From Myxococcales bacterium (GTDB lineage Bacteria > Myxococcota > Myxococcia > Myxococcales > UBA5297), in contig JASGHK010000008.1 of NCBI GenBank assembly GCA_049841135.1, positions 19,272 to 83,271 of the forward strand: a DNA stretch of 64,000 nt. Direction: 5' to 3'. The position numbers were made by a program, and so were the translations under genes. Below, piece after piece: positions 2,663 through 62,531 of the stretch (positions within the stretch are counted from its first letter, which is position 1; each line of letters starts with the position of its first letter). Under the pieces are notes generated by a model. That model was not told the DNA's origin. It worked only from the letters and a program-made list of their open reading frames with translations, and searched no databases.

Positions 2663-3721
2663 GTGTCGCTCGGTGACGAGCTGGTCCTTCGCGCGCGCGC
2701 CGAGGCCGAACAGCTGCAGGCGGTCATCTCGCCTGCGGGACTGGAGTCGCTGCGCGCCGAGGCGATGCAGCTCTTCGAGCAGCTGCCCGAGCCTCCCGCC
2801 TACCGCAAGGCCAACGACCCCGCGCGGGAGAAGGCGTCCCAGCTCGCCCCCAAGGCCACCGAGCTGCTCTCCCGGCTGCTCGCGGCGCGCAAGGCCGTGC
2901 CCGCCGACGCGCGGCTGCCGTCCCTCGAGCGCGCGGTCGAGGCGCACGTCCGGGCGCTCGCCGCCATCTCGGCCGGCGAGATCACGCTCGGCGACCAGCT
3001 GGCGCACGAGGCCTGGGACGCGGCGCGGGCGGCGACCAGCAGCGGCTCGTTCTTCCAGCTGCAGGGCAACGAGGCCCCGGCCGCCATCTACGACCGCGTG
3101 ACGCGCACCTCGCGCTACGACCCGCGCCCCGAGCCGATGCTGACGGTGCAGCTGTTCTGCGCCAACGAGGACTGCCGCAAGCCCGCCGCCTACTCGGTCG
3201 CGCCGCGCTACGCCACGCACCGCTTCACCTGCTCGGTCTGCCGCAAGCCCTTCACCGGCCACTTCGCCGAGCTGCGGCAAGCGGAGTCCAAGAGCACAGG
3301 CAAGGCGACGCACTACACCCTGCACGTCGAGCAGGTGGGCGGCGGCGAGAGCACGCTGGAGTTCGACGACACCTCGGGCGGCGAGCTGGCGGTCGCCCCG
3401 CGCGACCTCGTCGTCCTGCTCTACTCGGGGACCGGCTCGCTGGCCGCGGTCGAGAACCTCACCACCGGGCACGTGCTGTGGATCCTGCCCAAGGGGCCCT
3501 GCTTCCTGGCGACGGCGGTCTACGGCGAGGACGCGCCGGAGCTGGACGACTTCCGGGCCTTCCGCGACCGCGTGCTGCTCCCAAGCCTCTACGGGCGCGC
3601 CTTCGTGGCCGCGTACTACCGGGTCGGGCCGATCGTCGCCCCGGTGGTCGGACGGCGGCCCCTCTTGAGGCGCGCCACCCGCCTGGGGCTGGAGTCGATC
3701 CGCCGCAGGATCCAATCCTGA
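2663..3721 (+). CDS. hypothetical protein with zinc-ribbon (CANEDC...CSVC) and conserved C-terminal CxxATAVYG...FRAFRD...YY motif
   Basis: GTG start with GGGAG RBS 6 nt upstream. Four Cys in CxxxC...CxxC spacing. No family recognised. Confidence 0.5.
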   Translation: MSLGDELVLRARAEAEQLQAVISPAGLESLRAEAMQLFEQLPEPPAYRKANDPAREKASQLAPKATELLSRLLAARKAVPADARLPSLERAVEAHVRALAAISAGEITLGDQLAHEAWDAARAATSSGSFFQLQGNEAPAAIYDRVTRTSRYDPRPEPMLTVQLFCANEDCRKPAAYSVAPRYATHRFTCSVCRKPFTGHFAELRQAESKSTGKATHYTLHVEQVGGGESTLEFDDTSGGELAVAPRDLVVLLYSGTGSLAAVENLTTGHVLWILPKGPCFLATAVYGEDAPELDDFRAFRDRVLLPSLYGRAFVAAYYRVGPIVAPVVGRRPLLRRATRLGLESIRRRIQS

Positions 3722-3764
3722 CTCCAACGGGAGCCCGCCGGCTCTCACCTGTCTGGAGGATCAC

Positions 3765-4308
3765 GTGCAGGTCTCCGACAGAGTCTGGCGCAGCGTCCTC
3801 TATGTCGCCGCCGCGGTGGCCCTCGGCTTCGGCATGGTGGAGGCCATCAACGAGGCCAAGCTCGGCACCGCGCTGTCGGCCGGGACGCCGCCGCCCGCGT
3901 TCAGCGCCCTGCGCGCCGACGACGGCAGGCCGTTCGCGCTCACCGAGCTCAAGGGCAAGGTCACCGTCCTCTCCTTCTGGGCCAGCTGGTGCGGCCCCTG
4001 CCGGCGCGAGCTGCCGGTGCTGCAGAAGCTCGAGGCGCAGTACCGCGACCAGGGCCTGGCGCTGGTGACGGTGAACGTCGACGAGCCGGGCTCGCGTGAG
4101 GACGCGGCGGCCTTCCTCAGGGAGCTCGGCCGGCCCCCGCCGCTGGTGGTCTTCCCGAGCGAGAACACGCAGGCCGACTGGCGCGCCGGCACCCTGCCGA
4201 CGCTCTACGTGCTCGGGCGCGACGGGCAGATCCTGCTCGGGCACAGCGGGGCGTTGCCGGAGGACGCGCTGCGCCGGGAGATTCGAGGCGGCGCTCAAGG
4301 CTCTCTGA
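3765..4308 (+). CDS. TlpA/ResA-like thiol:disulfide oxidoreductase (thioredoxin fold, WCGPC), membrane-anchored; apparent +1 frameshift near 4282
   Basis: GTG start with GGAGGA RBS. N-terminal TM segment, then SFWASWCGPCRRELP. The in-frame ORF runs on to 4523 across the convergent gene. Removing one T at about 4282 restores a natural end ...ALRREIEAALKAL* at TGA 4306-4308. Confidence 0.65.
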
Positions 4309-9720: not shown

Positions 9721-11304
9721 ATGCGTCTGAGCCTCGTGGGAGCCGACTTCGAGGAGAACCTCGGCCTGGGGATGATCGCCGCGACCGCGCAGCAGGCGGG
9801 CCACTCGGTCGTCGTCCACCCCTTCAACGACGTGCGGCAGGCCCGTGAGGTCGCCCGGCGCATCGCCTCGGCCCGGCCCGAGCTGGTCGGGCTGAGCCTG
9901 CAGTTCCAGCACCGCGGTCACGAGTTCGTGGCCCTGGCGCGGGCGCTGCGCGAGGCGGGCTACCGCGGGCACCTGACCTGCGGCGGCATGCTCGCCTCGG
10001 CGGCCTGGCAGCAGGTCCTGGCCGAGAAGGCGTTCGACTCGGTCGTCCTCTACGAAGGCGAGCAGACGATCGTCGAGCTGGCCGGTGCGCTGGTCGCGGG
10101 GCGGCCGCTGGCGGAGGTCCCGGGCCTGGCGCTGCGCGACGAGCGGGGCGAGGCCGTGCGCACCGCCGACCGGGAGCGGCCGAGCGACCTCGACGCGCTG
10201 CCCTTCCCCACCCGCTACCGGCCGCCGACCCGGCACCTGGGCATCCCCTTCCTGCCCGTCCTCGGCTCGCGGGGCTGCTGGGGGCGCTGCACCTTCTGCT
10301 CCATCAGCTCCTTCCACCTCGAGGCGAGCGCGCACGGCGGCGGGCAGCTCTTCCGCCGGCGCAGCCCGGAGAACATCGCGCAGGAGATGGCGCTGCTCGC
10401 GGGCGACGGCCCTGCCCTCTTCTGCTTCCACGACGACAACTTCCTCCTGCCGAACCCCAAGCACTCGCTGAAGCGCGTGCAGGAGATCCGCGCGGCTTTC
10501 GACGAGCTCGCCCCTGGCCCCCTGGGCATCATCGGCAAGACGCGCCCGGAGTGCCTGACGGCCGAGCTGGCGAAGGAGCTGCGCGAGCTGGGCGTGGTGC
10601 GGCTCTACGTCGGCGTCGAGAACACCTCCGAGACCGGCGCCGAGCACCTGGCGCGCGGCACCCAGACCCGGCACGTGCACTCGGCGCTGGCCGCCTGCCG
10701 CGAGGCGGGCATCTTCGCCTGTTACAACCTGCTCGTCTTCGAGCCCAAGACGACGCTCGCCGACGTGAAACAGAACGTCGCCTTCATGCGCGAGCCTGCC
10801 GCGCCGAGGCCTACACCGGTACCCCGCTGCACCGCTCGCGTGCCTCGCGCGACGCGCTCACCGGCAGCTGGCTGGGCTGGAACTACCGGCTCGAGGACGA
10901 CCGGGCCGAGCTGCTCTTCCGCATCTGCGCGGCCGCCTTCCGCGAGCGCAACTTCGGCGCCGACGGCGTCGCCAACCGGTCGATGGGCCTGGGCTACTGC
11001 GGCCGGATCCTCGAGCACTTCTACCCGGAGGCGTCCGCCGAGGCGGCGAAGCTCTCGCGCCGCGCCGCGGACCTGACCCGGAACATCGTCCTGGAGACCG
11101 CGAGCTTCCTGGAGGAGGCCATCGCGCTCGCTGAGACGACGCCGCTCGCCGAGCGCGACGCCATCGAGCGGCAGACGGCGCTGCTGGGGCTGCGCATCGC
11201 ACAGGCGGACCAGCCCTGGCACGCGGCGATGGACGAGTTCCACGCCGACGCCGACGCGCTCGTCGCCTCACTGCAGGCGAGCCGGCCGAAGCCCGCGTCG
11301 TGGA
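9721..11304 (+). CDS. B12-binding radical SAM protein; apparent -1 frameshift near 10792-10800; stop not found before the next gene
   Basis: N-terminal cobalamin-binding domain (LVGLSLQF...). CxxxCxxC motif LGSRGCWGRCTFCSI. The reading frame changes after ...NVAFMRE and continues HARACRAEAYTGTPL... in frame 0. That frame runs without a stop into the lipoprotein-like ORF at 11305. Confidence 0.65.
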
Positions 11305-11972
11305 TGCGGGTGGCGCGGCGGGTGGCGCTGGGCGCGACCTTGGTGCTCGGCGGCACGTCCTCCTGCGAGTGCTACAGCGTCGACATGGTCCCCTACGATC
11401 CCGACGCGATGGTGGTCGACCCGGTGCCCGGCGACGCTGGGGCGACCGACGCGATGGTCGCCGACCCGCTCCCGCCCGACGCCGGCACCTCCGACGCGAT
11501 GGTTGCCGATCCGCTCCCGCCCGACGCCGGCGCCTCCGATGCGCTGGTCGCCGACCCGCTCCCGCCCGACGCTGGCAGCCCAGATGCGGGCATGGTGGCC
11601 GATCCGGCCCCGGAGGACGCAGGAATGGCGGTCGATCCACTCCCCGAGGACGGCGGCCACGCCGCCCGGGAACCGGCCGGCCAGTGGCGCGACTCCGCCA
11701 CCTACGCCTTGCGCTCGAACGACCTTCCGCTCTTCTGCCCGCCTGCGGTGCGGCTGTGCGCCGTGCGCGACGGCGAGACGGTCCGCGTCACCGTCCAGGG
11801 AGCGCCCGGCCCGCTCAGCACGCGCTGCGAGACCTCGGGCATCGTCGTCGGCGAGGGCCGGGAGCTGACCTGGACTCCGGCGTCGGCGGACGACTCGCTG
11901 CGCGTCGCCGTTCGTTCCGCGGGCGGCGTGGCGGTGGTCTCGCTGCGGGCCTGCGAGGTCAAAGCGAGCTGA
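11305..11972 (+). CDS. lipoprotein-like protein with 5 tandem 13-aa repeats (DAMVADPLPPDAG); possibly fused to the radical SAM gene
   Basis: MRVARRVALGATLVLGGTSSC signal/lipobox. Five 39-bp DNA repeats at 11392-11640. C-terminal Cys-containing domain. It is in-frame with the upstream gene and has no intervening stop. Confidence 0.4.
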
Positions 11973-12203
11973 GGCCCCAGTGCGCCACCGACATTCGGAT
12001 CGCTGAGATGCCCCAGGCGTGGAAGCCCGGCTCTACTCGTGCTATCTCCGCGCGCGACAGTACGAACTCAAGGCCGAAAAACGCAGCCCGGTTGGTAGCC
12101 CGGGCAACCGGCATCCCGCCGGCGCTGTAACCCTTCCTCCTCCGAGGACCGTCCGCGGCCGCGGCGCGCTCGCGATGCACTTCGCGAGCGACTCGGAGGA
12201 GTC

Positions 12204-13056: not shown

Positions 13057-14538
13057 ATGGCTGACCGCTTCGACGTCGTGATCATCGGCGGCGGGGTCAT
13101 CGGCTGCGCCATCGCGCGCGAGCTGTCCCGCTACCGGCTGAAGGTCGTCCTGCTGGAGAAGAACGCCGAGGTCGGCTTCGGCACCAGCAAGACCAACAGC
13201 GGCATCATCCACCCCGGCCACGATACGCCGCTCTCCACGCTCAAGGGCCGGCTGGTCGTGCGCGGCAACGCGCTCTTCGACCAGCTCGTCTCGGAGCTGC
13301 ACTTCGGCTTCCGCCGCATCGGCGAGCTGAAGGTGGCGATGCAGCCCGAGGACCTGGAGACCTTGAAGAAGCTCAAGGCCCAGGGCGACGAGAAGGGCGT
13401 GCCGGGCCTGGAGCTGTGGGACGCGCCGCGGCTGCAGCGCGAGGAGCCCAACCTCTCCCGCGCGCTCCTCGGCGCGCTCTACGCGCCCTCGGCCGGCGTC
13501 ATCAACCCCTACGAGTTCGCCTTCGCGCTCATCGAGAACGCCCAGGACAACGGCGTCGAGCTGCGCGTCGACTCGCCCGTGACTGCCCTTGTCCCCGAGG
13601 ACGGCGGCATGGCGGTGCAGGTCGGCGGCAAGCAGGCCGGCACGGTCCACGGCCGCTTCGTCCTCAACTGCGCCGGCGTCGCCTCCGACCGGATCGCCGC
13701 GATGGTCGGCTGCGACACCTTCAAGATCACGCCGCGCAAGGGCGAGGAGTACATGCTCGACAAGCGGCTCAAGGGCCTGGTCCGCCGGCTGGTCTTCCCG
13801 GTGCCGACCAAGACCACCAAGGGCACGCTCGTCATCCCCACCTTCGACGGGACGCTGATGGTGGGGCCGACCGCGCACGACGTCGAGGACCGGGACGACT
13901 TCGCGACCACGCCGCGTGGCGCCGAGGAGGTCTTCTCCTTCGTCAAGAAGCTCTGCCCGGCCATCAGCTCGCGCGACGCCATCACCGCCTTCGCCGGCCT
14001 GCGCGCGGTCAGCGACACCGGAGACTTCGTCATCGGGCCGACCCGCGTGAAGGGCTTCTTCAACGTCGCCGGCGTGCAGTCCCCCGGGCTGACCAGCTCG
14101 CCGGCCATCGCCGAATACGTGCGCGACCTCCTGCGCGAGGCGGGCCTGTCGCTCGACTCCAAGCCGGACTTCGTCCCCACCATCGCCGGCCCGGCGCGCT
14201 TCGCCCAGCTCTCTCCCGAGGAGCAGGACAAGCTCGCCGCCAAGGACCCGGCCTTCGCCAAGGTCGTCTGCCGCTGCGAGATGGTGACCGAGGCGGAGAT
14301 CCACGAGGCCATCGACCACGGCGCGCGCACGCTGGACGGCATCAAGTTCCGCACCCGCGCCGGCATGGGGCGCTGCCAGGGCGGGTTCTGCACCTCGCGC
14401 TGCATGGAGATCCTCTCCAAGCGCCTGCTGATCCCCATCACCGAAGTGACCAAGCGCGGCGGCGACTCGTGGATCGTCCGGCCCATGGAGGACGAGGAGA
14501 CGAGCGCGGGGCAGGTCCGCTCGGCTGCCGGAGGCTGA
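13057..14538 (+). CDS. FAD-dependent oxidoreductase, GlpA-like (anaerobic glycerol-3-phosphate dehydrogenase family) with C-terminal BFD-like [2Fe-2S] domain
   Basis: N-terminal DVVIIGGGVIGCAIAREL dinucleotide-binding fold. C-terminal CRCEMVTEAEIHEAIDHGARTLDGIKFRTRAGMGRCQGGFC. Confidence 0.8.
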   Translation: MADRFDVVIIGGGVIGCAIARELSRYRLKVVLLEKNAEVGFGTSKTNSGIIHPGHDTPLSTLKGRLVVRGNALFDQLVSELHFGFRRIGELKVAMQPEDLETLKKLKAQGDEKGVPGLELWDAPRLQREEPNLSRALLGALYAPSAGVINPYEFAFALIENAQDNGVELRVDSPVTALVPEDGGMAVQVGGKQAGTVHGRFVLNCAGVASDRIAAMVGCDTFKITPRKGEEYMLDKRLKGLVRRLVFPVPTKTTKGTLVIPTFDGTLMVGPTAHDVEDRDDFATTPRGAEEVFSFVKKLCPAISSRDAITAFAGLRAVSDTGDFVIGPTRVKGFFNVAGVQSPGLTSSPAIAEYVRDLLREAGLSLDSKPDFVPTIAGPARFAQLSPEEQDKLAAKDPAFAKVVCRCEMVTEAEIHEAIDHGARTLDGIKFRTRAGMGRCQGGFCTSRCMEILSKRLLIPITEVTKRGGDSWIVRPMEDEETSAGQVRSAAGG

Positions 14539-14648
14539 AGCCTCCGGCTACTCCTGGGGTGGATTGAGCTCGGGTTAAGCCCCTTCGGGGCTGCTCGGTT
14601 CTGTGGCACCTGGAAGTCTTGACCTACGACTTCGTCGAAGAGGCATCG

Positions 14649-19228: not shown

Positions 19229-21331
19229 CTACTGCAATGCCTTCTCCGTCGCCCTCAGCAGCGCCTCCGCGCCCACCGGCGCTCCCGTGGCGTTCTCCAT
19301 CCACAGGTCGGGCACCACCGTGCCGAACTTCGCCATCCGCTCGAACTCCACGCCCAGCGCCGGCACCGTCTTCATCTTCTCTTCGATTTGGAAGGCGATG
19401 AGGTGGCCCATCGGGTAGTCGGGCGTGTACATCGGGTAGGCGATGAGGTGCGAGTAGATGCCGAGCAGGACCGTGTCCTTGCCGCCCAGCACCGGCGCGT
19501 AGAACTGGTTCCAGACGTCCTTGGAGATCTGCACCACCGCTTCGCGCATCTGCGTCGCGGTCGCGGTCGGGTGGTCGTAGAGCCAGTGCCAGGTCCGCAC
19601 GTCGACCAGCGCCACGCCGGCGATCTCCCAGGTCATCCAGAAGCTGTTGAGCGCCGCCAGCTTCTCGGCCTCGGGGTCCGGCTTGGCCAGCCCCAGCAGC
19701 TCCAGGTCGCGCGCCTGGAAGACGAAGGCGAAGGCCTCGGTGAAGGCGGTGTTGGGCACCCCCTGCAGCAGCGTGTGGTCCACCTCGTAGAGCGAGATGA
19801 CCTGCTCGACGTTGTGGCCCAGCTCGTGGATGGCGATGTTGTAGCCCTTGTAGTCCATCCCGTCCTTGCCGATGCGCGTGCGCAGCCGCGGGAAGTCGCC
19901 GCGCCGCGTCGCCTGCATGGCGTGGCCGGAGCCGCGCGCCGGGTCGACTCGAATATGGTCGGCCAGGAACTGTGCCTTCTCCTTGGGGAAGCCCAGGTCA
20001 GTGAGGATGCGCGGGAGGTCCGCGGCGAACGCCTTGGCGTCCGGGTACTTCTTCTTGGTGATGGCGTCGAGCTCGGCCTCGCTGAACTTCCCACGCGGCT
20101 GGAAGCCGTTGTACCAGAGGTCGAACGGCTCGAGCTTGCGGCCGAGCCGCTTCTCGATGCGCGCGGCGACCTTGCCGGCGAGCGGCGAGGAGGTCACCTG
20201 CGTGAGCATCCCCACCACCCGCTCCTCGGGGATCTCGCGGCCCAGGTCGAAGCGCCGGGCGATGACCGTCGGCGAGACCGGGCAGTATGGGTCCGCCGCC
20301 TTGTTGGCCTGGAACTGCGCCAGCCACTTCGCATAGCGCCGGTCGGGCTCGGGCGTGGCCTCGGCCTTGGGCGCCGCCGTCTTGGGCGCGCCGTCCTCCA
20401 CCTCCGCCGCCGGCGCGAGCGCGACGGTGTTCGCCACCGGGTCCCAGTCGACCCGCGGATCGTTCACCACCGCCGCGGGGATGGTCTGGGTCACGATGCG
20501 CTGCATGACCTGGGCGAGCAGGCGCTGCTTGGCGAGGCCGCTCTTGGCGTCGGCGTAGTCGGCCTTGAGCTGGTCGCGCAGGTTCCAGTGCGAGAGCAGC
20601 CGCAGGCCCTTGGGGAAGAGCCGCTCGCCGGCGGGGTTCACGAGGTGGTGCGCCCAGACGTTGTACTCGGCGATGTAGAGGTCGGCCTCGGCGCCGACCC
20701 GGGAGATCTGCTGCTGCACCTCGCCGGGGATGCGGAAGGCGAAGCCGGCGGTCAGCCGCGCCTCGGCCCACTGGCGGCGCGTCCAGTCCTTGCCCGCCAG
20801 CCGCTCCTTGAGCGTGGTGAGCGGGAAGTTGAGGAGGACGTGGAAGGCGATCTTCGAGTCGAAGAGGTCGTCGGTCAGGTGCGCCGCCGGGTCGAGCGCG
20901 GAGAGCATCGGGTCCACGGAGAGCAGCGGGCCCTCGTCGACGTCGGTGGCCCAGCGCAGCGAGCGGCCGATCTCGTTGAAGGCGCCGCCGACCTGCTCGA
21001 AGGTCGCCTCCAGGCGGTCGAGCGTCGCGTCGAGCTGCTGGGGGTCGGCGATGAAGTTCTCCTGCACGAACGCCTTGAAGTCGCCGTCCTTCTCGCGCCA
21101 CAGCGCCGCCACCTGCTCGACGCCGCGCTCGATGCGCACGCGCTGCGCCTCGCCGTGCTTGGCGACCAGGGCCGCCTTGAGCTCTGCGCACTCCTTCTTG
21201 AGATCCATCGGTCCCTCCACTGCCTGGGCTTGCGGCTTGGCGTCGGACTTCACGCTGGGATTAGTCGAGCAGCAGGCGCCGAGCGAGAGCGCGCACGCCG
21301 AGAGGACGGCCATTCGTCGGGTCGAAGTCAT
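19229..21331 (-). CDS. zinc metallopeptidase-like lipoprotein (HEXXH: IAIHELGHNVEQ)
   Basis: MAVLSACALSLGACC lipobox. A single HELGH motif in a roughly 700 aa protein. The peptidase family is not assigned. Confidence 0.6.
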   Translation of the reverse strand: MTSTRRMAVLSACALSLGACCSTNPSVKSDAKPQAQAVEGPMDLKKECAELKAALVAKHGEAQRVRIERGVEQVAALWREKDGDFKAFVQENFIADPQQLDATLDRLEATFEQVGGAFNEIGRSLRWATDVDEGPLLSVDPMLSALDPAAHLTDDLFDSKIAFHVLLNFPLTTLKERLAGKDWTRRQWAEARLTAGFAFRIPGEVQQQISRVGAEADLYIAEYNVWAHHLVNPAGERLFPKGLRLLSHWNLRDQLKADYADAKSGLAKQRLLAQVMQRIVTQTIPAAVVNDPRVDWDPVANTVALAPAAEVEDGAPKTAAPKAEATPEPDRRYAKWLAQFQANKAADPYCPVSPTVIARRFDLGREIPEERVVGMLTQVTSSPLAGKVAARIEKRLGRKLEPFDLWYNGFQPRGKFSEAELDAITKKKYPDAKAFAADLPRILTDLGFPKEKAQFLADHIRVDPARGSGHAMQATRRGDFPRLRTRIGKDGMDYKGYNIAIHELGHNVEQVISLYEVDHTLLQGVPNTAFTEAFAFVFQARDLELLGLAKPDPEAEKLAALNSFWMTWEIAGVALVDVRTWHWLYDHPTATATQMREAVVQISKDVWNQFYAPVLGGKDTVLLGIYSHLIAYPMYTPDYPMGHLIAFQIEEKMKTVPALGVEFERMAKFGTVVPDLWMENATGAPVGAEALLRATEKALQ

Positions 21332-21421
21332 GGTGGGGTGAGATAGCCCCGACCGTGCGCCGCGGGCAAGCCTGGTTGCGTCGGGAGGGCGCGGTCACGA
21401 TTCGGCGGGCGCGCGGTCGCT

Positions 21422-21627
21422 GCCGGCGGCTGAAGCCGCGCCTGACGTTGCCAAGCCTGCCTTCGCAGGCTGGGTGGTCAACGGATTCGAAAGCACCGGA
21501 AGGGAGACACGGCCCAAGCGCTCCAGCACACCGTTGCCGTTCATCCCGGCTGGCGCCTTCAGGTCCAACTCCCACCCAGCCCGCGAAGGCGGGCTTCGTA
21601 ATGTCAGGCGCGGCTTCAGCCGCCGGC
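21422..21627. repeat. 206-bp inverted-repeat element (56-bp arms, 51/56 identical, about 96-bp spacer), each arm with an internal hairpin
   Basis: Arm 21422-21476 is the reverse complement of arm 21573-21627 with 5 mismatches. Internal hairpins gcctgc-cttc-gcaggc and gcccgc-gaag-gcgggc. It lies about 90-300 nt upstream of the metallopeptidase start. Confidence 0.7.
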
Positions 21628-21659
21628 ACTGCGCGGACCGGGTCGCTTCTCCTCGCCCC

Positions 21660-22119
21660 TCAGAACGACACCCCGAGCCCCAGCGCCCCGCGCACTCCCG
21701 GCCGCGCGACCGTCCCCCGCCCTTCCACCTGCGGCAGGTGCAGCAGCGCCTCGACCGCCGCCGAGGCGAAGAGCGGGTCGACGATCGGGAGACGCACGCC
21801 GCCTCCCACCCCCACCACCGGCACGAGCGCGGTCCGCACGCCCTGCTTCTGCACCTGCTGCCGCCACCACTGCTCGTCGAAGCTCGCCCACGCCCGCAGG
21901 TCCAGCCGCCGCAGGGCCCACTCGGTGCCGAGCGAGGCCCCCAGCCCCACCACCGTGGTGTCGGCCACCGTGTCCACCGTGCGCATCGACTGGTGCTCCA
22001 CCTGCAGGCGCAGCCCCACCTCGACCGGCGCGAAGCGCAACCCGTAGGAGAGCCGCACCAGCGGCGTCGCGCCCATGCCGACCACCGCCGCGCTCTGCAC
22101 GCCGCCCTCCAGCATCAGC
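21660..22119 (-). CDS. small beta-strand-rich ORF ending in Phe (OMP-like C-terminus); separate gene or C-terminal domain of the caspase protein
   Basis: Its ATG overlaps the caspase-frame TGA (TGATG). Alternating hydrophobic pattern, terminal ...GLGVSF. No signal peptide. Confidence 0.3.
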
Positions 22120-23222
22120 CGGTGGCGCCGCAGCAGTCGAAGCTCTTCGCCCCCAGCCGCGCCTCGCCTCCCCAGGGCAGCTCCGCCTGCGCCGCGCCGA
22201 CGCTGGAGTCGGTGCGCAGGTAGACGACGTAGCGCCCCGGCGGCACGGCGAGCCGCAGCGGGCGGCCGGCAGCCTTGTCGGCCTCGGCGATCACCTGGCC
22301 GGCCCCACGCTCGCTCACCACCACCTGCCCCGCGACGCCGTCCTCGATCTCGATCGAGGCCATGGCCTGCGTCAGGTCGCTCACCACCACCTCGCCGCGG
22401 CCCGAGATGTCGAAGTGGAAGGCGGGGTGCTGCAGCGAGCCCGTCCACGCCGCGGTGGCCCGCTCGGTGTTGCGCGCGGCGAAGGCGTGCAGCTCGGCCA
22501 GGCTCACCCGCCGGTCGCCATCGGCGTCGGCGGCGCCGCGCAGCCCGGAGAGAAGGAAGTGCGTGAAGATCGACCCGCCGAGCGAGCCCATCTCCCTGGG
22601 CCTGCTCGGCGACGTCGGCGGAGACCAGCGCCGCGAAGCCCCGGACGCCCGCCGGCGGCTGCGCGGCGACGGCGAACCCCTTGGGCAGGGTGAGCGTCCC
22701 CGCCTGGCAGGCGTCGACGAACGCCACGCGGAGCTCGGCGGGACCCGACTCGAGGCGCGCGCGCAGCTCGTCCCAGGGCAGGCGCGTCGCGCCCAGGTGC
22801 AGCGCCTTCTCGTCCGCGTGGCCCGAGTAGAAGAACAGGAGCACCGCGGGCTCGGCGCTGGTGCGCACCCGCTCCTCGGCCTGCGCCAGGGCCGCCTTCA
22901 GCGCGGCCGCGTCGCCGCCCAGCACCAGGAAGAGGTCGTCCGCCGCCACCCCGCTCAGCTCGCGCAGCGCCTGGGCCATTCGCTGGGCGTCGGCGCGGGC
23001 GAAGCGCAGCTCCACCTCCCCGGGCGCGCCGAGGTCGTTGCCGGCCACTACCGCGACGCGGCGACCGAGCGGAGATGCCGCGGCCGTCGCGCCCCACAGC
23101 GCGACGGCGACGGCGACGGCGATGGCCGGAGCCAGCGCCTCAGCGGCTCTGGTTGCGGAGCAGGCCAAGGCGCGGGATTGCCCGGTGAGTGAGGAGGACG
23201 AGATCGTCGAGGTGGTCTCCAT
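22115..23222 (-). CDS. caspase-like (peptidase C14) domain protein; apparent +1 frameshift near 22595-22600
   Basis: His/Cys dyad contexts FFYSGHA and FVDACQAG. After ...AEQAQG the frame shifts to MGSLGGSIFTHFLLSGLRGAADADGDRRVSLAEL. The 5' end overlaps the stop of the upstream lipoprotein, so the start is uncertain. Confidence 0.6.
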
Positions 23223-25677
23223 CGAGGTCCCAGGGTACGACGGCTCTGAGGTAGCCGGCGGTGTCGGTGGAGTGCACGTCGAGGCTGGCCGCGCTCAGGA
23301 AGCGGCCCCCGCGAGCGACGAACGCCTTCACCTGCGTCCCGTCCTGCGCCCACGCCACCACGTCCCTCAGGCCGTCGCCGTCCACGTCCCCCACCTCCAT
23401 CGCCTTGCAGTCCTCGAGGTCCACCGGGCCCGACTGTCGGACGACCTCGAGCTCGTTCGCGGATGTCAGCCGGAGGGAGGCGACGCTGCCAGGACTGGCG
23501 GAGTCGACGAGGAACAGCTCGGCAGCTCCGTCGAGCCCGCGGCGGACCTTGCTGCTCCAGGGCTCCAGGTAGCTGCCGCCGAGCTGCGCGGGCAGCCGGG
23601 CAAGCAGGTGTCGCGAGGCCCCGCCCTGCCCATCGGAGAACCAGATCTCCAGCCGGCCGTGGTGATCCGCCGGGTCCTCGGTGATGGCGAAGAAGTCGTC
23701 ACGGCCGTCGCGGTCGAAGTCGAACATCCGCGGCGCCGACCACGAGTCCTTGAACACCTCGGCTGGCAGCGTGACCGGCTGGAGCTCTCCGGAGACGTCG
23801 CGATAGAGCCTGAGCTCGGCCCGGTCGAGGTGACGCAACCAGACCAGGATGGCGCAGTGTCCGGAGTCGAAGGGCCGCCCCGCCTCCAGCGCCTGGCCGA
23901 AGAAGTCCTCGGTGTCGTTCAGCACCAGGCTCGCCCGACGCTCCAGGCCGCTCTTGCCAGCCCCGAACACCATCGCGCCGTCCTTCAAGGCCCTGGTCCG
24001 ATAGTGGATCACCAGCTCGTCGACGCCGTCGCCGTCGAGGTCGCACGCCTTCGCGTCCCCGATGCCGTTCCTCGGCTCGTCCGGGCTGTTCGCGGGCCAC
24101 TCGGCCGCGTAGTTGACCGAGGCCGTCTGCCGGGCCGCGTCCTTGACCTCGAAGAATGCGACGGAGGGCCCTGCCCCCACCGCCACGGTTCCCAGGGCGC
24201 CAAAGTTCCCGGACGCCAGGTGCCAATTGCCGACCGTCTCCGGGTCCGTGCCGGGCGCGAGGGCAGGCCAGCCGGCGGAGAGCCCGTAGGAGTCGCCGAA
24301 CCTGGCGCGGAGGACGCCCGCGTCGCGCAGCACGAGGTCGCCGCCCTCGATGCCGTCGAGCTCGGCCATGCCCAGGAAGGCGGACTCGGTGCTGCCCACG
24401 AGCGTCTGGGCGCCGTTCAGCCACCGGTAGACGCAGGTGCCGGCCGCGCAGCCCCAGACGGTCTGGCCCTTCGCGCCGAACGGCGAGTAGTGGGCCGCGT
24501 ACGAGGCGGCGGACTGCAGCTGCTCCCCGAAGACGCGCCCCTGGTTCGTGTAGAGGACCGAGCCGTCGATCACCAGGTCGAGCTGCGGCGGCGCGGTCAC
24601 GGCCGCGGGCTGCAGGCCCGTCGCGTGGCCCGTGCCCACCCACTCCTCGGTGAAGGTCGGCCCGTAGCGCACGTGGACCCGGGCCTCCGGGCCGATCCAG
24701 GCGAGATCCGCGTGGCCGTCCCGGTCGAAGTCCTGGTAGGCCAGCTGCGTGCGCCACTCCGCGGTCCACTGGTCCATCAGCAGCTCGACGCCCTCCACCG
24801 GGTCCAGGACCGTCACCGCGCCCGAGTCCGAGAGGCGTGCCTCGCGCAGCGTCGGGTGGTGCTTCAGGGTCTCGGAGCAGCCAGCCCAGTCGGCCTGAAC
24901 GACCAGCACCATGAGGCGCTGCTCGTAGTGCTCGTCGAGCTCTCCTGGCAGCACGGCGAGCACGCTCTCCTCCGGTCCCACCGGCAGGTCGATGGGCGCC
25001 CCGAGCCGGCCCTGGGCGTCGCTCAGCCTGAGCATGGAGCCGAGGAGCAGGTCGGCCTGGCCGTCGCGATTGGCGTCGACGACCTGGTGCGTGCAGCTGT
25101 TCGTCTCGAAGCGCTGCGAGAAGACGAAGCGCGCCCCGCTCTCGCGGTTGAGGAAGACCACGGCTTCCCAGGTCGGGGCTGTGGAGAAGACGAGGTCGTC
25201 GAGGCCGTCGCCGTCGAGGTCGCCCAGCTGCGGGCGGTCGAGCTGGGCCAGGTCGAGGGGCTCGCCGGCGGGATCGAGGACGAGCCCGGGGCGGTTGAAG
25301 AGGACGGTGTCCGCGTAGTAGCGCAGCCCCGGGGTCCAGCGGGCCTGCTGCCCGTTGGCCGCGCGCACGACGAGATCGGCGATGCCCGGCGTCCCCTTCG
25401 GCGCGAGGAAGCTCAGCTGCTCGCTGTCGCGCCGCGCCACCAGCGAGACCGGTTGGCCTGCGACGAGCACCTCGACGCCCTCGGCGAAGTGCGTGCCCAG
25501 CACGGTCACCTCGACGCCTCCGGCCGCGGGCACCGCGTCGGGGAGCACGTCGGTGAGGGTGAGGTCGACGGACAGCGAGCCGTCGACGACCGAGTCCAGG
25601 CACCCGGTGGCACCGACGAGGAGCAGCGAGGCGAGGCAAGACGCGAGGCGGGCAGGAGCGATGCGGGGGCGACGCAT
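23140..25677 (-). CDS. large lipoprotein with N-terminal IPT/TIG-like domain and FG-GAP/VCBS (DxDGDGxxD) repeats
   Basis: MRRPRIAPARLASCLASLLLVGATGC lipobox at ATG 25677. Repeated DLDGDGLDDLV, DFDRDGHADL, DLDGDGVDELV and DVDGDGLRDVV calcium-binding-like loops. Confidence 0.7.
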   Translation of the reverse strand: MRRPRIAPARLASCLASLLLVGATGCLDSVVDGSLSVDLTLTDVLPDAVPAAGGVEVTVLGTHFAEGVEVLVAGQPVSLVARRDSEQLSFLAPKGTPGIADLVVRAANGQQARWTPGLRYYADTVLFNRPGLVLDPAGEPLDLAQLDRPQLGDLDGDGLDDLVFSTAPTWEAVVFLNRESGARFVFSQRFETNSCTHQVVDANRDGQADLLLGSMLRLSDAQGRLGAPIDLPVGPEESVLAVLPGELDEHYEQRLMVLVVQADWAGCSETLKHHPTLREARLSDSGAVTVLDPVEGVELLMDQWTAEWRTQLAYQDFDRDGHADLAWIGPEARVHVRYGPTFTEEWVGTGHATGLQPAAVTAPPQLDLVIDGSVLYTNQGRVFGEQLQSAASYAAHYSPFGAKGQTVWGCAAGTCVYRWLNGAQTLVGSTESAFLGMAELDGIEGGDLVLRDAGVLRARFGDSYGLSAGWPALAPGTDPETVGNWHLASGNFGALGTVAVGAGPSVAFFEVKDAARQTASVNYAAEWPANSPDEPRNGIGDAKACDLDGDGVDELVIHYRTRALKDGAMVFGAGKSGLERRASLVLNDTEDFFGQALEAGRPFDSGHCAILVWLRHLDRAELRLYRDVSGELQPVTLPAEVFKDSWSAPRMFDFDRDGRDDFFAITEDPADHHGRLEIWFSDGQGGASRHLLARLPAQLGGSYLEPWSSKVRRGLDGAAELFLVDSASPGSVASLRLTSANELEVVRQSGPVDLEDCKAMEVGDVDGDGLRDVVAWAQDGTQVKAFVARGGRFLSAASLDVHSTDTAGYLRAVVPWDLDGDHLDDLVLLTHRAIPRLGLLRNQSR

Positions 25678-25821
25678 GAAGGTCTCCTTTCGACCGGGTT
25701 GCCCTAAGGACGTCCGGCGCCGGAAAAGTGGGAAGGCCGGGCTTCGGGCTGCGGGCTTCGAGCTTCGCGTCAAGCACGTCGGGCTTCGGGCTTCGCCGGC
25801 CTGCCGTGTCCGAAGCCTTCC

Positions 25822-26586
25822 CTACCTCCGCTCCGCCTCGATGAGCAGGCTCGTGACCTGGGCCTGCACGCCCTTCGCCAGCGCCAGCGCGTCGACCTTC
25901 GACGGCTCCCCCCCGGCGGCGCGCAGCGCTTCTCGCAGGCGAGCCTCCAGGCTCTGGGGATTGAGGGGCTGCATGGAGGTGAAGAGCAGCAGGCGCTGCG
26001 ACGGGTTCGCCGCGTCGAGCGTGAGCCTGGGCGGCGCCGACGGAGCCTCCGGGCCGCCGGCGCCGAGAGGCTGGACGGTCTCCGGCGCGGAGAGCACCAG
26101 GAGCAGCCACTGCGCCTGCGGCCCCGAGGGCACCTTGGGATCAACCGCGTCTCCCGCCTGCAGCGCCTCCGTTCCTGCCGCGACCCAGCTCCTGTCGCCG
26201 CGATGGATGACGAAGACCCCTGCCCCGCCGCCCTTGGCCAGGACATCCGGGCGCTGCGGGTCCGCGCCGAACCTCGGCCCCAGCATCAGCACCACCAGCG
26301 CCGTCGCGGCCAGCGGCGGCAGCGCCAAGGCCGGCCACCTCCACCAACGCCTGCGAGGCTCGTTCGGGCCTTCCCTCGCCAGAGTCCGGAGCCGCGCCGC
26401 CGCGGCCGCCGGTGGATGGCGCAGCAGGAACGCCTCGCGCTCGGCGCGGGCGGTCTGGAGCTTGGACGCGCAGGCCGCACAGGCCTCCAGGTGACGGCGG
26501 GCGAGGCTCGCTTCGTCCTCGGTCACGGCCTCGGCCAGGAGGCGATCGACGAGGTGGTTGGGCAGGTGGTCGCCTAGCGGTTCCAT
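25822..26586 (-). CDS. anti-sigma factor (zf-HC2 type)
   Basis: MEPLGDHLPNHLVDRLLAEAVTEDEASLARRHLEACAACASKL, then a TM segment. Overlaps the sigma gene by 13 nt. Confidence 0.65.
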   Translation of the reverse strand: MEPLGDHLPNHLVDRLLAEAVTEDEASLARRHLEACAACASKLQTARAEREAFLLRHPPAAAAARLRTLAREGPNEPRRRWWRWPALALPPLAATALVVLMLGPRFGADPQRPDVLAKGGGAGVFVIHRGDRSWVAAGTEALQAGDAVDPKVPSGPQAQWLLLVLSAPETVQPLGAGGPEAPSAPPRLTLDAANPSQRLLLFTSMQPLNPQSLEARLREALRAAGGEPSKVDALALAKGVQAQVTSLLIEAERR

Positions 26587-27059
26587 CGTGTCAGGACCTC
26601 CCGGGCCCGCTCCTCGAGCCTGCGGAGCCGGTTGCCGATCGTCTTGCGCGAGACGCCCAGGGCGCTCGCGGCCTCCTCCTGGCTCATCTCCTCGACGTGC
26701 ACCAGCACCGCCACCTGCTGCGAGTCGAGGTCCAGCGCCGACAGCAGCCGCCCGCAGGTGTCCTGGCGCTGCAGCGCGGCTTCGAGGTCCGCCGGGGCGC
26801 CGCCTGCGGCGCGGTCGCGAAGCTCGCCTTCCCATGCCGATCCGCGCCGCGCCCGGAAGCGCAGCCGATCCAGGCTGAGGTTGACCGCGCTGGTCGTCAG
26901 CCAGTCCACCAGCGCCTTCGGGTCCGCGGGACCGCCCTTGAGGTAGCGAAGGAACACCTCCTGCACCACGTCGTCGGCCTCGGCCTCGCCCACGATGCGT
27001 CGGGCCTTGGCATGGACCAGCGGCGCGAACCTTCGGTAGAGCTCCTCGAGCGTGTCCAT
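26574..27059 (-). CDS. ECF (sigma-70 family, group 4) RNA polymerase sigma factor
   Basis: Region 2 (DDVVQEVFLRYL) and region 4 HTH (EEMSQEEAASALGVSRKTIGNRLRR). Confidence 0.85.
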   Translation of the reverse strand: MDTLEELYRRFAPLVHAKARRIVGEAEADDVVQEVFLRYLKGGPADPKALVDWLTTSAVNLSLDRLRFRARRGSAWEGELRDRAAGGAPADLEAALQRQDTCGRLLSALDLDSQQVAVLVHVEEMSQEEAASALGVSRKTIGNRLRRLEERAREVLTRWNR

Positions 27060-27179
27060 GCGGTTGTCGGGGCCGCTGACTTCAAGGACGTCCGGGCCTG
27101 CTTTTCTGGGAAGGTGGCGTGGCTCGAACTACCTTCTGGCGGGCTGGGGCGCAAGGGCAGGCCGGCGAGGGCCGCCCTC

Positions 27180-27300
27180 GGGGCCAGGTTCCGAATCCGA
27201 AAACTCGTCCGGTGGGGCGAGGCGGGGCCAGGTTCCGAATCCGAAAACTCATCCGGTGGCTCGAGGCGGGGCCAGGTTCCGAATCCGAAAACTCGTGGTC
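27180..27300. repeat. 3 x about 45-bp tandem repeat (ggggccaggttccgaatccgaaaactcRtccggtggNNcgaggc) in the divergent promoter region
   Basis: Direct visual repeat at 27180-27300, between the ECF sigma start (27059, minus) and the secreted-protein gene (27443, plus). Confidence 0.75.
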
Positions 27301-27442
27301 GAGCGCGTCCAGGCGCCCATCCCGAGCGGCCAACTGGCCGCACCTGACGGGCAGCCCCGCGCACGTTCCGGGCGCGGAACCCTTGGAGAATTTGCCCGGC
27401 ACCGACCGTGCAACGGGCGCTGGCACCTCACCGGAGCCGAAC

Positions 27443-28528
27443 ATGCGCGCCCTGACCGTCCTCGCCTTCGCCCTTCTGGCCGTCCACCCCAACGTCGCCT
27501 CCGCCGTCGACTGCGGCAAGGCCAAGACCCGCCCCGAGAAGCTCGTCTGCGCCAGCGACGAAGCCTCGAGCCTGGACCGGGAGCTGGCAGCGACGTACCG
27601 CGACGCGCTCGAGAGCCAGCACGGCAGAGCCCGCGAGCGGCTCGAGATGTTCCAGGACCGGTGGGGCGATGCCGTGTTGAAGGGATCGGGAGCCGGCGCC
27701 AACTCGATGCAGGAAGACGAGCTCGCGTCCTACTACCGCCTGCGCATCGACCTGCTCCGGGTGGTGGCGGGCCGGACCGCGCTGTCCGAGGTGCCCGGTC
27801 CCGAGCAGTTCGGCGACGACACCCTCGGCTGGCGATGGGTCGACGTCCGCTTGGGCGATCGCGAAGTCCTGCGCTACCCGCAGCTCACGCGCTCCCGCTC
27901 CGCCCACCTGGAGACCGTCAACACCCGTATCCGCGAGGATGCCCAGGAGCTGGTCGACAGCTACGTGGAGTGCTCCACCGGCAGCGGCTTCGGCACCTTC
28001 ACCTACTCCGTGAAGAAGGCGAAGCAGGGGTTCTTCGAGGTGGAGCTCGCCGACTCGTCGTGGGGCTGCTTCTGTGGCTGCGCCCACCCGTCCACGAGCG
28101 AGACCGTGACGACGCTCTTCGACCTCGAGACGGGGAACGACGCGGTGCCAGTGCTGCGCCGGCTGGTCGTGCAGAAGGAAGGCGCCCGCGAAGCGCTGCT
28201 CGAGCTCGCCTACGCCCACGAGCCCGCCAATCCCTTCGGATTTCGGGCGAACCCGGCGGACGGCTCCGAGACCGGCGGCGGCGAGCTCGGCTGGCTCTCC
28301 TTCGATCCCGCGACGGGAGCGGTCCTGATCGGGGTGATGCACTGCTACGCCATGCGCGCCTTCGACTTCGTGGCGGCAGTGAGGCCAGAGCAAGTCGTGA
28401 CGCTGGTCGAGCTCGACTCGCACGCGCTCTCGGAGGTGCCGCGCTTCCGGCGCGCGGGGTACCTCTCGGACGCGGACGTCGTCGCCGTCTCCGACCTCGC
28501 CCGCCGGCTCGGCCACCGGGCGAGATAG
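27443..28528 (+). CDS. secreted hypothetical protein with LprI/DUF1311-like N-terminal module
   Basis: Signal peptide MRALTVLAFALLAVHPNVASA. DCGKAKTRPEKLVCASDEASSLDRELAATYRDALE resembles the lysozyme-inhibitor LprI fold. Confidence 0.5.
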   Translation: MRALTVLAFALLAVHPNVASAVDCGKAKTRPEKLVCASDEASSLDRELAATYRDALESQHGRARERLEMFQDRWGDAVLKGSGAGANSMQEDELASYYRLRIDLLRVVAGRTALSEVPGPEQFGDDTLGWRWVDVRLGDREVLRYPQLTRSRSAHLETVNTRIREDAQELVDSYVECSTGSGFGTFTYSVKKAKQGFFEVELADSSWGCFCGCAHPSTSETVTTLFDLETGNDAVPVLRRLVVQKEGAREALLELAYAHEPANPFGFRANPADGSETGGGELGWLSFDPATGAVLIGVMHCYAMRAFDFVAAVRPEQVVTLVELDSHALSEVPRFRRAGYLSDADVVAVSDLARRLGHRAR

Positions 28529-28741
28529 CCAGCGCGAGGCGCCCGACACCTCGAGCTTGTCGAGGAGCCCTCTCGGTCTGCGCCGTTTGTCGGGAAGGAG
28601 CGATCCCAGTTTTAGCGAGCCGCTCCCCTTCCGACGCCGTCCGAAGTCGGCGAAGAAGCAGCTGAAGAAGAGTTCGGGGGTGAGCCGTCGACCGAGCGAG
28701 CACTGCTTGCCCGGCCCCGACGCGGTTGGTAGAGACCCGCC

Positions 28742-30427
28742 GTGGCTCCCATCACCGAACACGCCGCGGCGCACGCAGCGCCCCCGGCTGCCGACCTCGC
28801 CCAGGTAACCCACCGCCCGGGCGGCAGCACCGTCCGCCTCCCGCCCGAGTTCTCCCGAGCGACGGTGGTCGGATACTTCGAGCGGATGGGCATCCCCGGT
28901 CGCGTCGTCATGGGGCCCGCGGACATCGACGGGGTGGGCAGCATCGGCCCCGAGCAGTGGGCAGTCATTGCCGATGGCCGGTCCCCGCGCTTCCTCTCCG
29001 ACCGCGCGCCCGTCACCTTCCCCAGCGACCCGAGGCTCCGGGTCTTCGTCTTCCCCAAACACACCGTGGTGGTGCCAGCCGGGCAGGTCTGGTGGCTGCA
29101 GGTGGCCCTGGAGCGCGTCAAGCCCGAGCGGTTCGAAGCCGACGGGCGGCCCGCTTCCTGGGTGCCACCGGTCCCCCGGTCTGCCGCGCCGGCCCTGGAC
29201 CCGAATCGGGACGGCGACGCGACCATCGGCGAGGCCGGCTCGCTCCCGGAGGCCGAGCCGCTCGAGGCCGAGGCGCCGGGCACGCCCGTCCCCTCGTCCG
29301 CCATCCGGGACTGGTTCGCTGCGCTGTGCGCGAGCCTCGGCCTTCCGGAGATACCGCTGGTGGTCCGGCGTGGGCAGGAAGACGCGCGCGGCCAGGTCCG
29401 CGGGAGCGTGGTGATGACGGCGGACTTCGCGCCCCTGCGCGTCTGCGTCACCACCTGCCCCAACTCCGACCAGGCGGAGGTCCTGGCGACCCTGGTCCAC
29501 GAGCTCGCCCACCCGCTCTCCCGCTCCACCGACCACGGCTCTGCGTTCCGCAGCACGCTGGTGGATCTCGCGGCCCGCCTCTGGGGCGAGCCGCACCTCG
29601 CCGGCGCCCGGGCCCACGTCGACGGCGCCTACCCGCTGCTGGACCGCTGGGTCACCTGCGGCATCCGGGCGGCGTTGGCCGGCCGCGAGCCACCTGCCTC
29701 CAAGGTCTGCGACGACGGCCACGCCGCGAGGGTCGTCGGCAAGGTGGCCAAGCTCTGGGCGCTGGCCGCGGACCAGCTCGGAAAGCCCGAAGGCGTCGGC
29801 GCCGCGGCCATGGCCAACGACCTCGTCACCGTCTACGGCCTCGACCAGTCCCAGGTCTTCACCACCCCGAGCTTCGACGACGGGCTCGTGGACCGCTATG
29901 TCCTGCTCCAGCCGCGCAAGCCCTGGCAGCGCACGCTCGCGCACGAGGTGGCCTACTTCAGCAACGTGTACTCGCTCTCCATGGACAGCGAGGCGCGGAT
30001 GCACTTCTTCGGGCGCTACTCGGACGTCGTCGCCGCCGAGTACCTGTGTGGCGTCAGCATCGGGCGGATCGAGCGCGAGTGCGCGGCCTACCTCGAGCGA
30101 TGCCGCGCGAGCCTGGCCAAGGGCGAGCTGCGCCGGGCCGGCCTGGCCTTCTGCGAGTCGGCGGCGCACGAGTTCGGGCGCAAGCTCCACCGGATCCTGG
30201 AGGAGGAGGCGCGCGCTGCCGGCCGCGCCGTCCAGAGCGCGGCGCTGAACGAGGCCACGGACTTCGCGGAGCACCAGCTCGAGCTGCGCGGCTTCAGGGT
30301 GGGCAAGGCTCGCGCGCGCGAGGTCCGGTACAGCGCCGTCGGCGCCGAGCTGGGCAAGCGGATGGAGGTCGTGCGCGGGCTCGACTCGCAGGGCGCCGCA
30401 CCTCGCTCGCTGCCCGGGCGCAAGTAG
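28742..30427 (+). CDS. hypothetical protein with SprT-like HEXXH motif (VHELAHP) and DUF2786-like helical C-terminal region
   Basis: HELAH zinc-binding motif. VVGKVAKLWALAADQLGKPEGVGAAAMANDLVTVYGLD resembles DUF2786. Confidence 0.45.
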   Translation: MAPITEHAAAHAAPPAADLAQVTHRPGGSTVRLPPEFSRATVVGYFERMGIPGRVVMGPADIDGVGSIGPEQWAVIADGRSPRFLSDRAPVTFPSDPRLRVFVFPKHTVVVPAGQVWWLQVALERVKPERFEADGRPASWVPPVPRSAAPALDPNRDGDATIGEAGSLPEAEPLEAEAPGTPVPSSAIRDWFAALCASLGLPEIPLVVRRGQEDARGQVRGSVVMTADFAPLRVCVTTCPNSDQAEVLATLVHELAHPLSRSTDHGSAFRSTLVDLAARLWGEPHLAGARAHVDGAYPLLDRWVTCGIRAALAGREPPASKVCDDGHAARVVGKVAKLWALAADQLGKPEGVGAAAMANDLVTVYGLDQSQVFTTPSFDDGLVDRYVLLQPRKPWQRTLAHEVAYFSNVYSLSMDSEARMHFFGRYSDVVAAEYLCGVSIGRIERECAAYLERCRASLAKGELRRAGLAFCESAAHEFGRKLHRILEEEARAAGRAVQSAALNEATDFAEHQLELRGFRVGKARAREVRYSAVGAELGKRMEVVRGLDSQGAAPRSLPGRK

Positions 30428-30536
30428 GCAGCAGGCAGCAAGGCCGGCCCCTGGTCTTCGCCCTGACCACAGCGGTGAACACGGCGCTTGCCGCCCGATC
30501 CGCACGAACCTTATCCTCCGCGCCCGCCAGGAGGAC

Positions 30537-59516: not shown

Positions 59517-59675
59517 TGCGTGTTCTCTCCATCCAGGGTTAAGCGAGCCCGGCACCATAGCCGAAAACCAGACGTTCGGCACCTCCCCCGGTGGGCCCCC
59601 AGGTTCAAAGGGCTTCCCCGGGCGCGCGTCAACGGCTAGAAAGTGCCTTTTCGTCCGAGAGTCCGAGAGGTTGCG

Positions 59676-62525: not shown

Positions 62526-62531
62526 CGCTCC

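Follow-up and report, generated by a model that had tools for sequence, protein, structure and literature searches.

A 206-bp palindrome in the genome of a Myxococcales bacterium is likely to be an inverted doublet of a REP-like repeat unit, that is, a REPIN-like, non-autonomous mobile element. It is most likely a passenger of mobile DNA that carries no transposase of its own, rather than a regulator of the neighboring peptidase gene. The meaningful unit is each arm of about 55 nt, not the whole palindrome, and it is close to certain that the arms are homologous to units that flank Y1 transposase genes. The arrangement in the window, by which is meant the whole 64-kb stretch of DNA that was analyzed (G+C content about 71%), is that of a REPtron bracket without its gene, with a forward unit, a 94-nt spacer, and a reverse unit facing it; it is this bracket without a gene that leads to the reading as a REPIN/REPtron-like non-autonomous element.

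Structure and Position of the Palindrome

The element at 21422-21627 is a long imperfect palindrome whose outer arms (21422-21477 and 21572-21627) are complementary at 51 of 56 positions, as the first-pass annotation had reported. In a repeat search, the inverted repeat could be extended to arms of 93 nt with 77% complementarity (21421-21513 and 21536-21628). Arm 25-mers occur at just these two sites in the 64 kb, with a chance expectation of 0.00-0.01. RNA folding yielded z-scores of -13.5 and -14.4 for the two strands, with no dinucleotide shuffle as stable, and DNA folding a z-score of -10.3, again without a shuffle that equaled the element. Both strands fold equally well, which is expected of a DNA palindrome. 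A covariance model built on the unit, R1, was run over the whole window without filters. The features are as follows.

21422-21477, plus strand: left repeat unit (R1 67.3 bits, E 8e-18; nhmmer 7e-19)
21426-21439: left unit, hairpin 1, GCGGC-TGAA-GCCGC
21442-21446: left unit, foot CTGAC, followed by the linker and hairpin 2
21454-21471: left unit, hairpin 2, AGCCTGC-CTTC-GCAGGCT
21478-21571, no strand: spacer, 94 nt, non-coding and non-conserved
21572-21627, minus strand: right repeat unit (R1 70.3 bits, E 1e-18)
21578-21595: right unit, hairpin 2', AGCCCGC-GAAG-GCGGGCT (plus-strand reading)
21603-21607: right unit, foot GTCAG (plus-strand reading)
21610-21623: right unit, hairpin 1', GCGGC-TTCA-GCCGC (plus-strand reading)
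19229-21331, minus strand: lipoprotein of 700 aa with an HEXXH motif; downstream neighbor, outside the element
21660-23222, minus strand: caspase-domain (Peptidase_C14) ORF of 520 aa; upstream neighbor, outside the element
14527-14592, plus strand: probable third, divergent singlet unit (R1 16.8 bits, E 0.003), 6.9 kb from the element

Each arm thus contains two local hairpins, not the single 6-bp hairpin first described. The spacer measures 94 nt instead of roughly 96, and the inner caacgg/ccgttg pair noted within it is real but a trivial 6-mer; self-complementarity of the spacer is weak (z about 2), and a search of the spacer for a remnant of Y1 coding sequence found none.

The element lies inside a 328-bp intergenic gap between two minus-strand genes. 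Its position upstream of the metallopeptidase lipoprotein gene, whose homologs are named M3 family oligoendopeptidase by their sources, holds up, with 90 bp separating the element from the ATG at 21331. On the other side, the stop codon of the caspase-domain ORF (21660) precedes the element by 32 bp in the direction of the gene. Across the element, four of the six reading frames remain open, GLRNVRRGFSRR among them, and these open frames explain the artefact ORFs that had been seen on both strands. A protein search with the concatenated four open translations of the unit returned nothing that scored. In the 520-aa ORF itself, Peptidase_C14 is confined to residues 54-178, and the Arg/Gly/Ala-rich stretch that follows resembles an out-of-frame translation; the ORF may represent a frameshift, a pseudogene, or a mis-joined reading frame.

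The element is flanked by ...GGTCGCT on the left and ACTGCGCGG... on the right. No target-site duplication was found at its ends, and no direct repeat abuts both of them, an absence that is expected for Y1 elements. The 7-mer GGTCGCT that abuts the left end (21415-21421) recurs 13 nt past the right end (21641-21647), a coincidence that is probably due to chance and not a proper target-site duplication. BLAST of the element against plasmids and phages and a degenerate-arm scan of viral contigs gave no match. Rfam searched at E values up to 1 produced only sub-threshold hits (CRISPR-DR28, with 24.7 of 35 bits, and MIR1151), and promoter and terminator consensus scans around the element detected nothing, including no U-tract terminator.

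The best relatives of the peptidase are from Myxococcota. The closest, P0001 (89% amino acid identity), is encoded at locus L020 in the Myxococcales MAG GCA_036504155.1. DNA homology between the window and L020 begins within the gene, extends 75 nt beyond the ATG on its upstream side (21332-21406 conserved), and ends at window position 21406, 15 nt from the edge of the element. The element is absent upstream of this ortholog and also absent at the more distant ortholog locus L021, and because it is missing at both, the comparison indicates that the peptidase locus does not include it as a conserved component. No empty site could be identified, the upstream region of the relative showing no overall homology to that of the window. 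Window 21406-30484 and L020 1046-9802, which are bounded by conserved sequence on the aldehyde dehydrogenase side and at the peptidase, each contain about 9 kb of unrelated genes. The window-specific segment of about 9 kb was considered as a mobile island and dropped, given that its Pfam content comprises caspase and FG-GAP/TIG domains and no integrase or transposase. The L020 locus has a perfect 20-nt palindrome of its own at 9740-9759, CATGTCCCACGTGGGACATG, about 115 nt upstream of the ortholog ATG and missing in the window, which may be an operator. At L021, the peptidase ortholog adjoins an FtsX/ABC transporter operon (L021 3-3991), a homolog of which is located about 40 kb away in the window (59667-63617), so that the neighborhood is rearranged among relatives.

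Distribution and Covariation of the Repeat Unit

The unit consists of hairpin 1 (GCGGC-TGAA-GCCGC), the foot CTGAC, a short linker, and hairpin 2 (AGCCNGC-CTTC-GCNGGCT), with the consensus GCCGGCG[A/G]CTGAAG[T/C]CGCGCCTGAC, a linker of 6-10 nt, and G.C.GC-CT[T/G]C-GC.G.C. The element is one member of a dispersed family of non-coding repeats, others of which occur in further genomes and at loci unrelated to this one. When 185,579 species-representative genomes were scanned for exact 20-mers, 19 loci were identified, among which a full double-hairpin doublet like that of the window occurs only at L006 (5152-5351). This copy is from GCA_036504155.1, the closest available relative, in which the exact scan matched just one arm. 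It sits between two unrelated convergent genes, has no target-site duplication, and folds with a z-score of -5.6. Its arms are 87-90% identical to those of the window, whereas the spacers (88 nt in L006) share no significant similarity (z 0.1 and 1.4). Two further loci, L013 and L038, contain divergent unit-like matches (R1 38-40 bits). Three others (L003, L010, and L019) were discarded as family members, as their matches represent one common coding sequence, and the remaining 20-mer loci consist for the most part of coding matches or of short matches to hairpin 1 alone.

In metagenomes, a scan with the degenerate arm and subsequent searches with nhmmer and a regular expression located units on at least nine contigs, with dispersed copies on five contigs within one metagenome. 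The L006 copy and, where neighboring ORFs could be judged, most metagenome copies lie outside ORFs with high GC3, and several metagenome units are positioned just past ORF ends. Units are arranged as singlets, as tandem copies, and as inverted doublets. Inverted doublets are present in the window, L006, L026, L037, L041, L043, L055, and L057, always with hairpin 1 outermost. Their spacers measure 6, 12-13, 29, 75, 88-89, or 94 nt, with lengths of about 90 nt recurring (88 nt in L006 and 94 nt in L057; that of L043 is 75 nt). Copy number appears low. Over the 64-kb window, R1 recovered the two arms and one weak third candidate (14523-14557), with nothing apart from the arms above 17 bits, which amounts to one doublet and one doubtful singlet; R1 and nhmmer found no units over 32 kb of L020 and L021. 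A literature search for the core sequence of the unit found no paper containing it, and another found no paper linking REP or RAYT elements to myxobacteria.

The weak candidate is tentatively assigned to the family. At 14527-14592, it comprises GCCGGAGGC-TGAA-GCCTCCGGC, a CTAC foot (14548-14551), a 25-nt linker, and AGCCCC-TTC-GGGGCT (14578-14592), and the TGA of its loop is the stop codon of the ORF at 13057-14538. Hairpins with a T[GAC]AA loop and a stem of at least 5 bp number three in the 64 kb, this one among them, compared to 0.7 in shuffles. Its hairpin 1 is kept at the orthologous site in L020 (about 21260-21310) with a compensatory change, GGAGGC to GGGGGC.

Covariation, which had been proposed as a check, revealed compensatory changes in both local hairpins. 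In an alignment of 24 distinct units, the left arm of the window among them, with two local helices and 11 pairs (A2), 97.2% of cells form a standard pair, and six of the 11 pairs have changed on both sides (25 cells); none of 500 shuffles reached the observed values, and slid controls, in which partners were moved by 1-3 columns, were 21-51% paired. Across subfamilies, the stem of hairpin 1 varies freely in sequence (GCGGC, GCGAC, GCGAT, GCGAA, CCGAT, or GGACAAT) around a near-constant loop, T[GAC]AA and mostly TGAA. The 3' foot occurs as CTGAC, CTAC, or CTAG, and the loop of hairpin 2 as CTTC or CTGC. The two arms of one and the same doublet carry different compensated stems in L006, L026, L037, and L041. 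Because the arms of several doublets differ in this manner, the pattern of substitutions indicates that selection acts on the local hairpins and not on arm-to-arm complementarity.

Y1 Transposase Genes and Known Repeat Systems

A metagenome contig retrieved through its units alone, L043, encodes two Y1_Tnp ORFs, each of them flanked by units. The L043 Y1 protein matches PF01797 (E 8e-20) and the IS200/IS605 model NF033573 (66 bits; cut-off 55); with the NCBIfam RAYT model NF047646 it scores 20 bits, below the cut-off of 80. The nearest solved structures are the IS200/IS605 TnpAs 2F4F, 2XM3, and 2A6M. The second L043 Y1 gene (3656-4111, minus strand) is 65% identical to the first, and in its product the first histidine of the HUH motif is replaced (EDRVHV), so that it is probably inactive. 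Units nevertheless flank this copy as well, and it has a syntenic counterpart in L047. A tandem array of hairpin 1 alone, with a 36-nt period (GCTGGCGACTGAAGTCGCGCCTGGCAGGACAGCTCG), adjoins the Y1 locus at L043 806-903 and L047 8440-8537.

Further loci of the Y1 clade were fetched by protein homology alone (45-68% amino acid identity) and only then searched for units with nhmmer and R1.

L047: Chthonomonadaceae MAG, syntenic with the second Y1 gene of L043
L048-50: metagenome contigs, one locus
L051: metagenome contig
L052/53: Chloroflexia MAG
L054: metagenome contig, 223 kb
L055: metagenome contig
L056: metagenome contig, 3.0 Mb
L057: contig, 1.04 Mb

All nine Y1 genes, at eight distinct loci, are flanked by units. 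Six of the nine show the order forward unit, gene, reverse unit, and four of the Y1 genes with this order are flanked by inverted repeats of 54-73 nt at 84-98%. In L054 and L057, dispersed units or doublets also occur 4.5-8.7 kb from the Y1 gene. Y1 genes are the sole kind found repeatedly between or beside units; a DDE enzyme was never found there. The named hosts are Armatimonadota (Chthonomonadaceae) and Chloroflexia MAGs, the others being unassigned soil contigs. No Y1 gene was detected in the 64-kb window by tblastn, and none of the cognate Y1 loci found could be placed in a Myxococcota genome. The clade, represented by 15 members in alignment A3, is characterized by the motifs DH[IV]H, FFKWQG, and Y[IV]xxQxxHH and a length of about 140-150 aa. 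In L057, the downstream unit (10414-10480) overlaps the last 14 or so Y1 codons, such that the repeat encodes the C terminus. In L056, units at 11963-12181 fall inside a called MmeI-like gene, reflecting either an insertion or a wrong gene call.

REP/RAYT systems, reportedly treated by Nunvar in 2010, and REPIN-RAYT systems are documented mainly in Proteobacteria and Cyanobacteria, and classical REPs number more than 100 per genome. The present family resembles them in its short, GC-rich, extragenic hairpin units, in their occurrence as singlets and clusters, and in the absence of target duplication. REPINs are inverted REP doublets in which the spacer is conserved in length and hairpin capacity, not in sequence (Bertels & Rainey 2011, PMC3116915); likewise, the doublets described here are able to form a long hairpin, and those of the window and L006 have spacers of similar length (89 and 88 nt in this comparison) and unrelated sequence. 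REPtrons and inverted REP pairs have been described, and REPINs are moved in trans by a Y1 transposase whose substrate is single-stranded DNA (Ton-Hoang 2012, PMC3333891; PMC6006769); units of the present family flank a small Y1 HUH gene at loci in other organisms.

Several properties set the family apart. Its units contain two hairpins, in contrast to the one of a REP. Canonical REPs possess a conserved 5' GT[AG]G tetranucleotide at the hairpin foot (PMC6006769), whereas the foot is GTCAG in the arms of the window, in L006 and L043, and in the units of L022-L045; L052 and L054 do have homologous units with a GTAG (CTAC) foot, which is also that of the doubtful singlet at 14548-14551. Class 2 TnpA-REP proteins are defined by the motif Y...NP (PMC6006769 Table 1), whereas the associated Y1 protein has the class 1 signature Y..Q..HH and falls below the RAYT cut-off. 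Finally, copy number appears low in the Myxococcota sequences seen. For these reasons (no Y1 seen in Myxococcota, no empty site found, an apparently low copy number, the GTCAG foot, and a Y1 outside class 2), the element is not filed as a canonical REP and is described instead as working like a REPIN.

The closest published category for the transposase is TnpAY1 subclass 1.2, characterized by DH[IV]H, WQ, and Y...Q..HH motifs, a length of about 148 aa, and low copy number (Quentin et al. 2018, PMC6006769). The Y1 clade matches in motifs and length, the assignment being one made by motifs, and its paralogs are similarly few and diverged (65% identity in L043). However, subclass 1.2 is listed as "REP: no" and as mostly from Cyanobacteria and Bacteroidetes (Quentin et al., PMC6006769), whereas units flank every Y1 locus in this study, and those hosts that have a name belong to Armatimonadota and Chloroflexia. 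For IS200 Group 3, abundant flanking 16-mers are on record, with no duplicates reported (PMC5581495).

IS200/IS605 elements, compared here together with their MITE-like derivatives (PATEs), provide the solved structures nearest to this clade, which reaches the NCBIfam IS200 cut-off, and they, too, use subterminal hairpins as recognition elements. In those elements, however, the hairpins at the ends lie on the same strand, and the entire IS transposes and is present in many identical copies. Units of the present family are for the most part in inverted orientation, and the Y1 copies of L043 are just 65% identical, one with a broken HUH motif. ERIC/IRU, Correia, and similar elements are likewise imperfect palindromes of 100-200 bp in transcribed intergenic regions that can fold in mRNA. 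They bear no sequence relation to the present family and have either TIRs and target-site duplications (Correia) or no known transposase, in contrast to the modular unit tied to a Y1 gene.

Proposed Mobilization Mechanism and Competing Explanations

By analogy with what is known biochemically of the IS608/ISDra2 TnpA enzymes and of TnpA-REP from E. coli, a fairly probable mechanism is that a Y1 enzyme encoded elsewhere in the genome would read the hairpin and foot on single-stranded DNA at the replication fork. Cutting and rejoining of one strand, without duplication of the target, would then excise or copy the doublet. The copy at this locus would probably be a passive passenger, with any effect on its neighbors a by-product. 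In transcripts of the caspase-like gene, the 3' UTR might gain a very stable hairpin that serves as an RNA 3' end or an exonuclease barrier; alternatively, the element might be an insulator just upstream of the conserved promoter region of the peptidase gene.

Two other readings also invoke mobile DNA. The MITE-like insertion suggested by the first-pass annotation came closest of its options, since the element does belong to a dispersed family. A classical MITE would be a deletion derivative of a DDE insertion sequence, with arms that act as TIRs bound as double-stranded DNA and with insertion that generates a target-site duplication. A size of about 200 bp, long inverted ends, a non-coding center, and an intergenic position agree with this description, but it is made highly unlikely by the lack of a direct repeat abutting both ends, the existence of the arms as singlets and tandem copies, compensatory changes that keep the intra-arm hairpins while breaking arm-to-arm identity, and a recurrent partner gene that is Y1 and never DDE. 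About equally improbable is a degraded REPtron, in which a Y1 gene once resided between the units at this site and was deleted, the doublet never having transposed as such. The order of forward and reverse units with hairpin 1 outside does match that at six of the nine Y1 genes; however, the spacer retains no trace of Y1 coding sequence, and similar doublets with spacers of about 90 nt elsewhere favor a form that propagates as a doublet. The proposal of a recombination site applies solely in the sense that such hairpins are cut by transposases of the single-strand type; the element showed neither an integrase nor an att context.

A locus-specific cis-regulatory RNA, with the element forming the structured 5' leader of the peptidase transcript or else an RNA dedicated to regulating that gene, had also been proposed; this reading, prompted by a very stable fold on the transcribed strand 90 nt upstream of the ATG, is now hardly credible. 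The element is missing upstream of the orthologs at L020 (89% identity) and L021, although L020 keeps the ATG-proximal 75 nt; homologous copies reside at unrelated loci, including that of L006 between unrelated genes, and flank transposase genes; both strands fold equally well; and no significant Rfam family was matched. Unlikely, yet deserving more weight, is a structural element that ends or stabilizes the caspase-like mRNA or binds a nucleoid protein, its mobility being past or irrelevant. Roles of this kind have been described for some E. coli REPs, and several positions are in keeping with such a function: the element begins 32 nt past a stop codon, two convergent genes have their 3' ends on either side of the L006 copy, several metagenome units follow ORF ends directly, and a stop codon falls within the singlet at 14527, which the relative retains with a compensatory change. 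On the other hand, no U-tract terminator was detected, and the doublet is not conserved at the orthologous locus. A host function would, moreover, account for retention and not for origin, and it is compatible with the preferred reading of a REPIN-like mobile doublet, to which it could be added as a secondary role.

With respect to annotation, the palindrome as a riboswitch or leader of the peptidase gene was a false lead that is now removed. The four open frames across the element are artefacts that annotation should mask, and R1 could serve for masking or annotating such repeats when they occur in metagenome assemblies of high G+C content. More generally, a two-hairpin unit with stem covariation tracks an IS200-like Y1 clade across phyla, with representatives of the unit also in Myxococcota. 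It offers a compact model for how a Y1 enzyme reads hairpin, loop, and foot, and a counter-example to the published statement of a Y1 subclass without REPs. Somewhat more speculatively, and at odds just short of even, the element may represent, within Myxococcota, a REPtron system that spans phyla and has so far gone undescribed, in which a Y1 transposase with the subclass 1.2 signature co-evolves with a two-hairpin REP that spreads as doublets with spacers of about 90 nt. If true, the "domestication" that produced REPs would not be confined to the class 2 RAYTs but would also have taken place within the IS200 branch, and recognition would follow a simple code of a constant loop and foot combined with a freely covarying stem.
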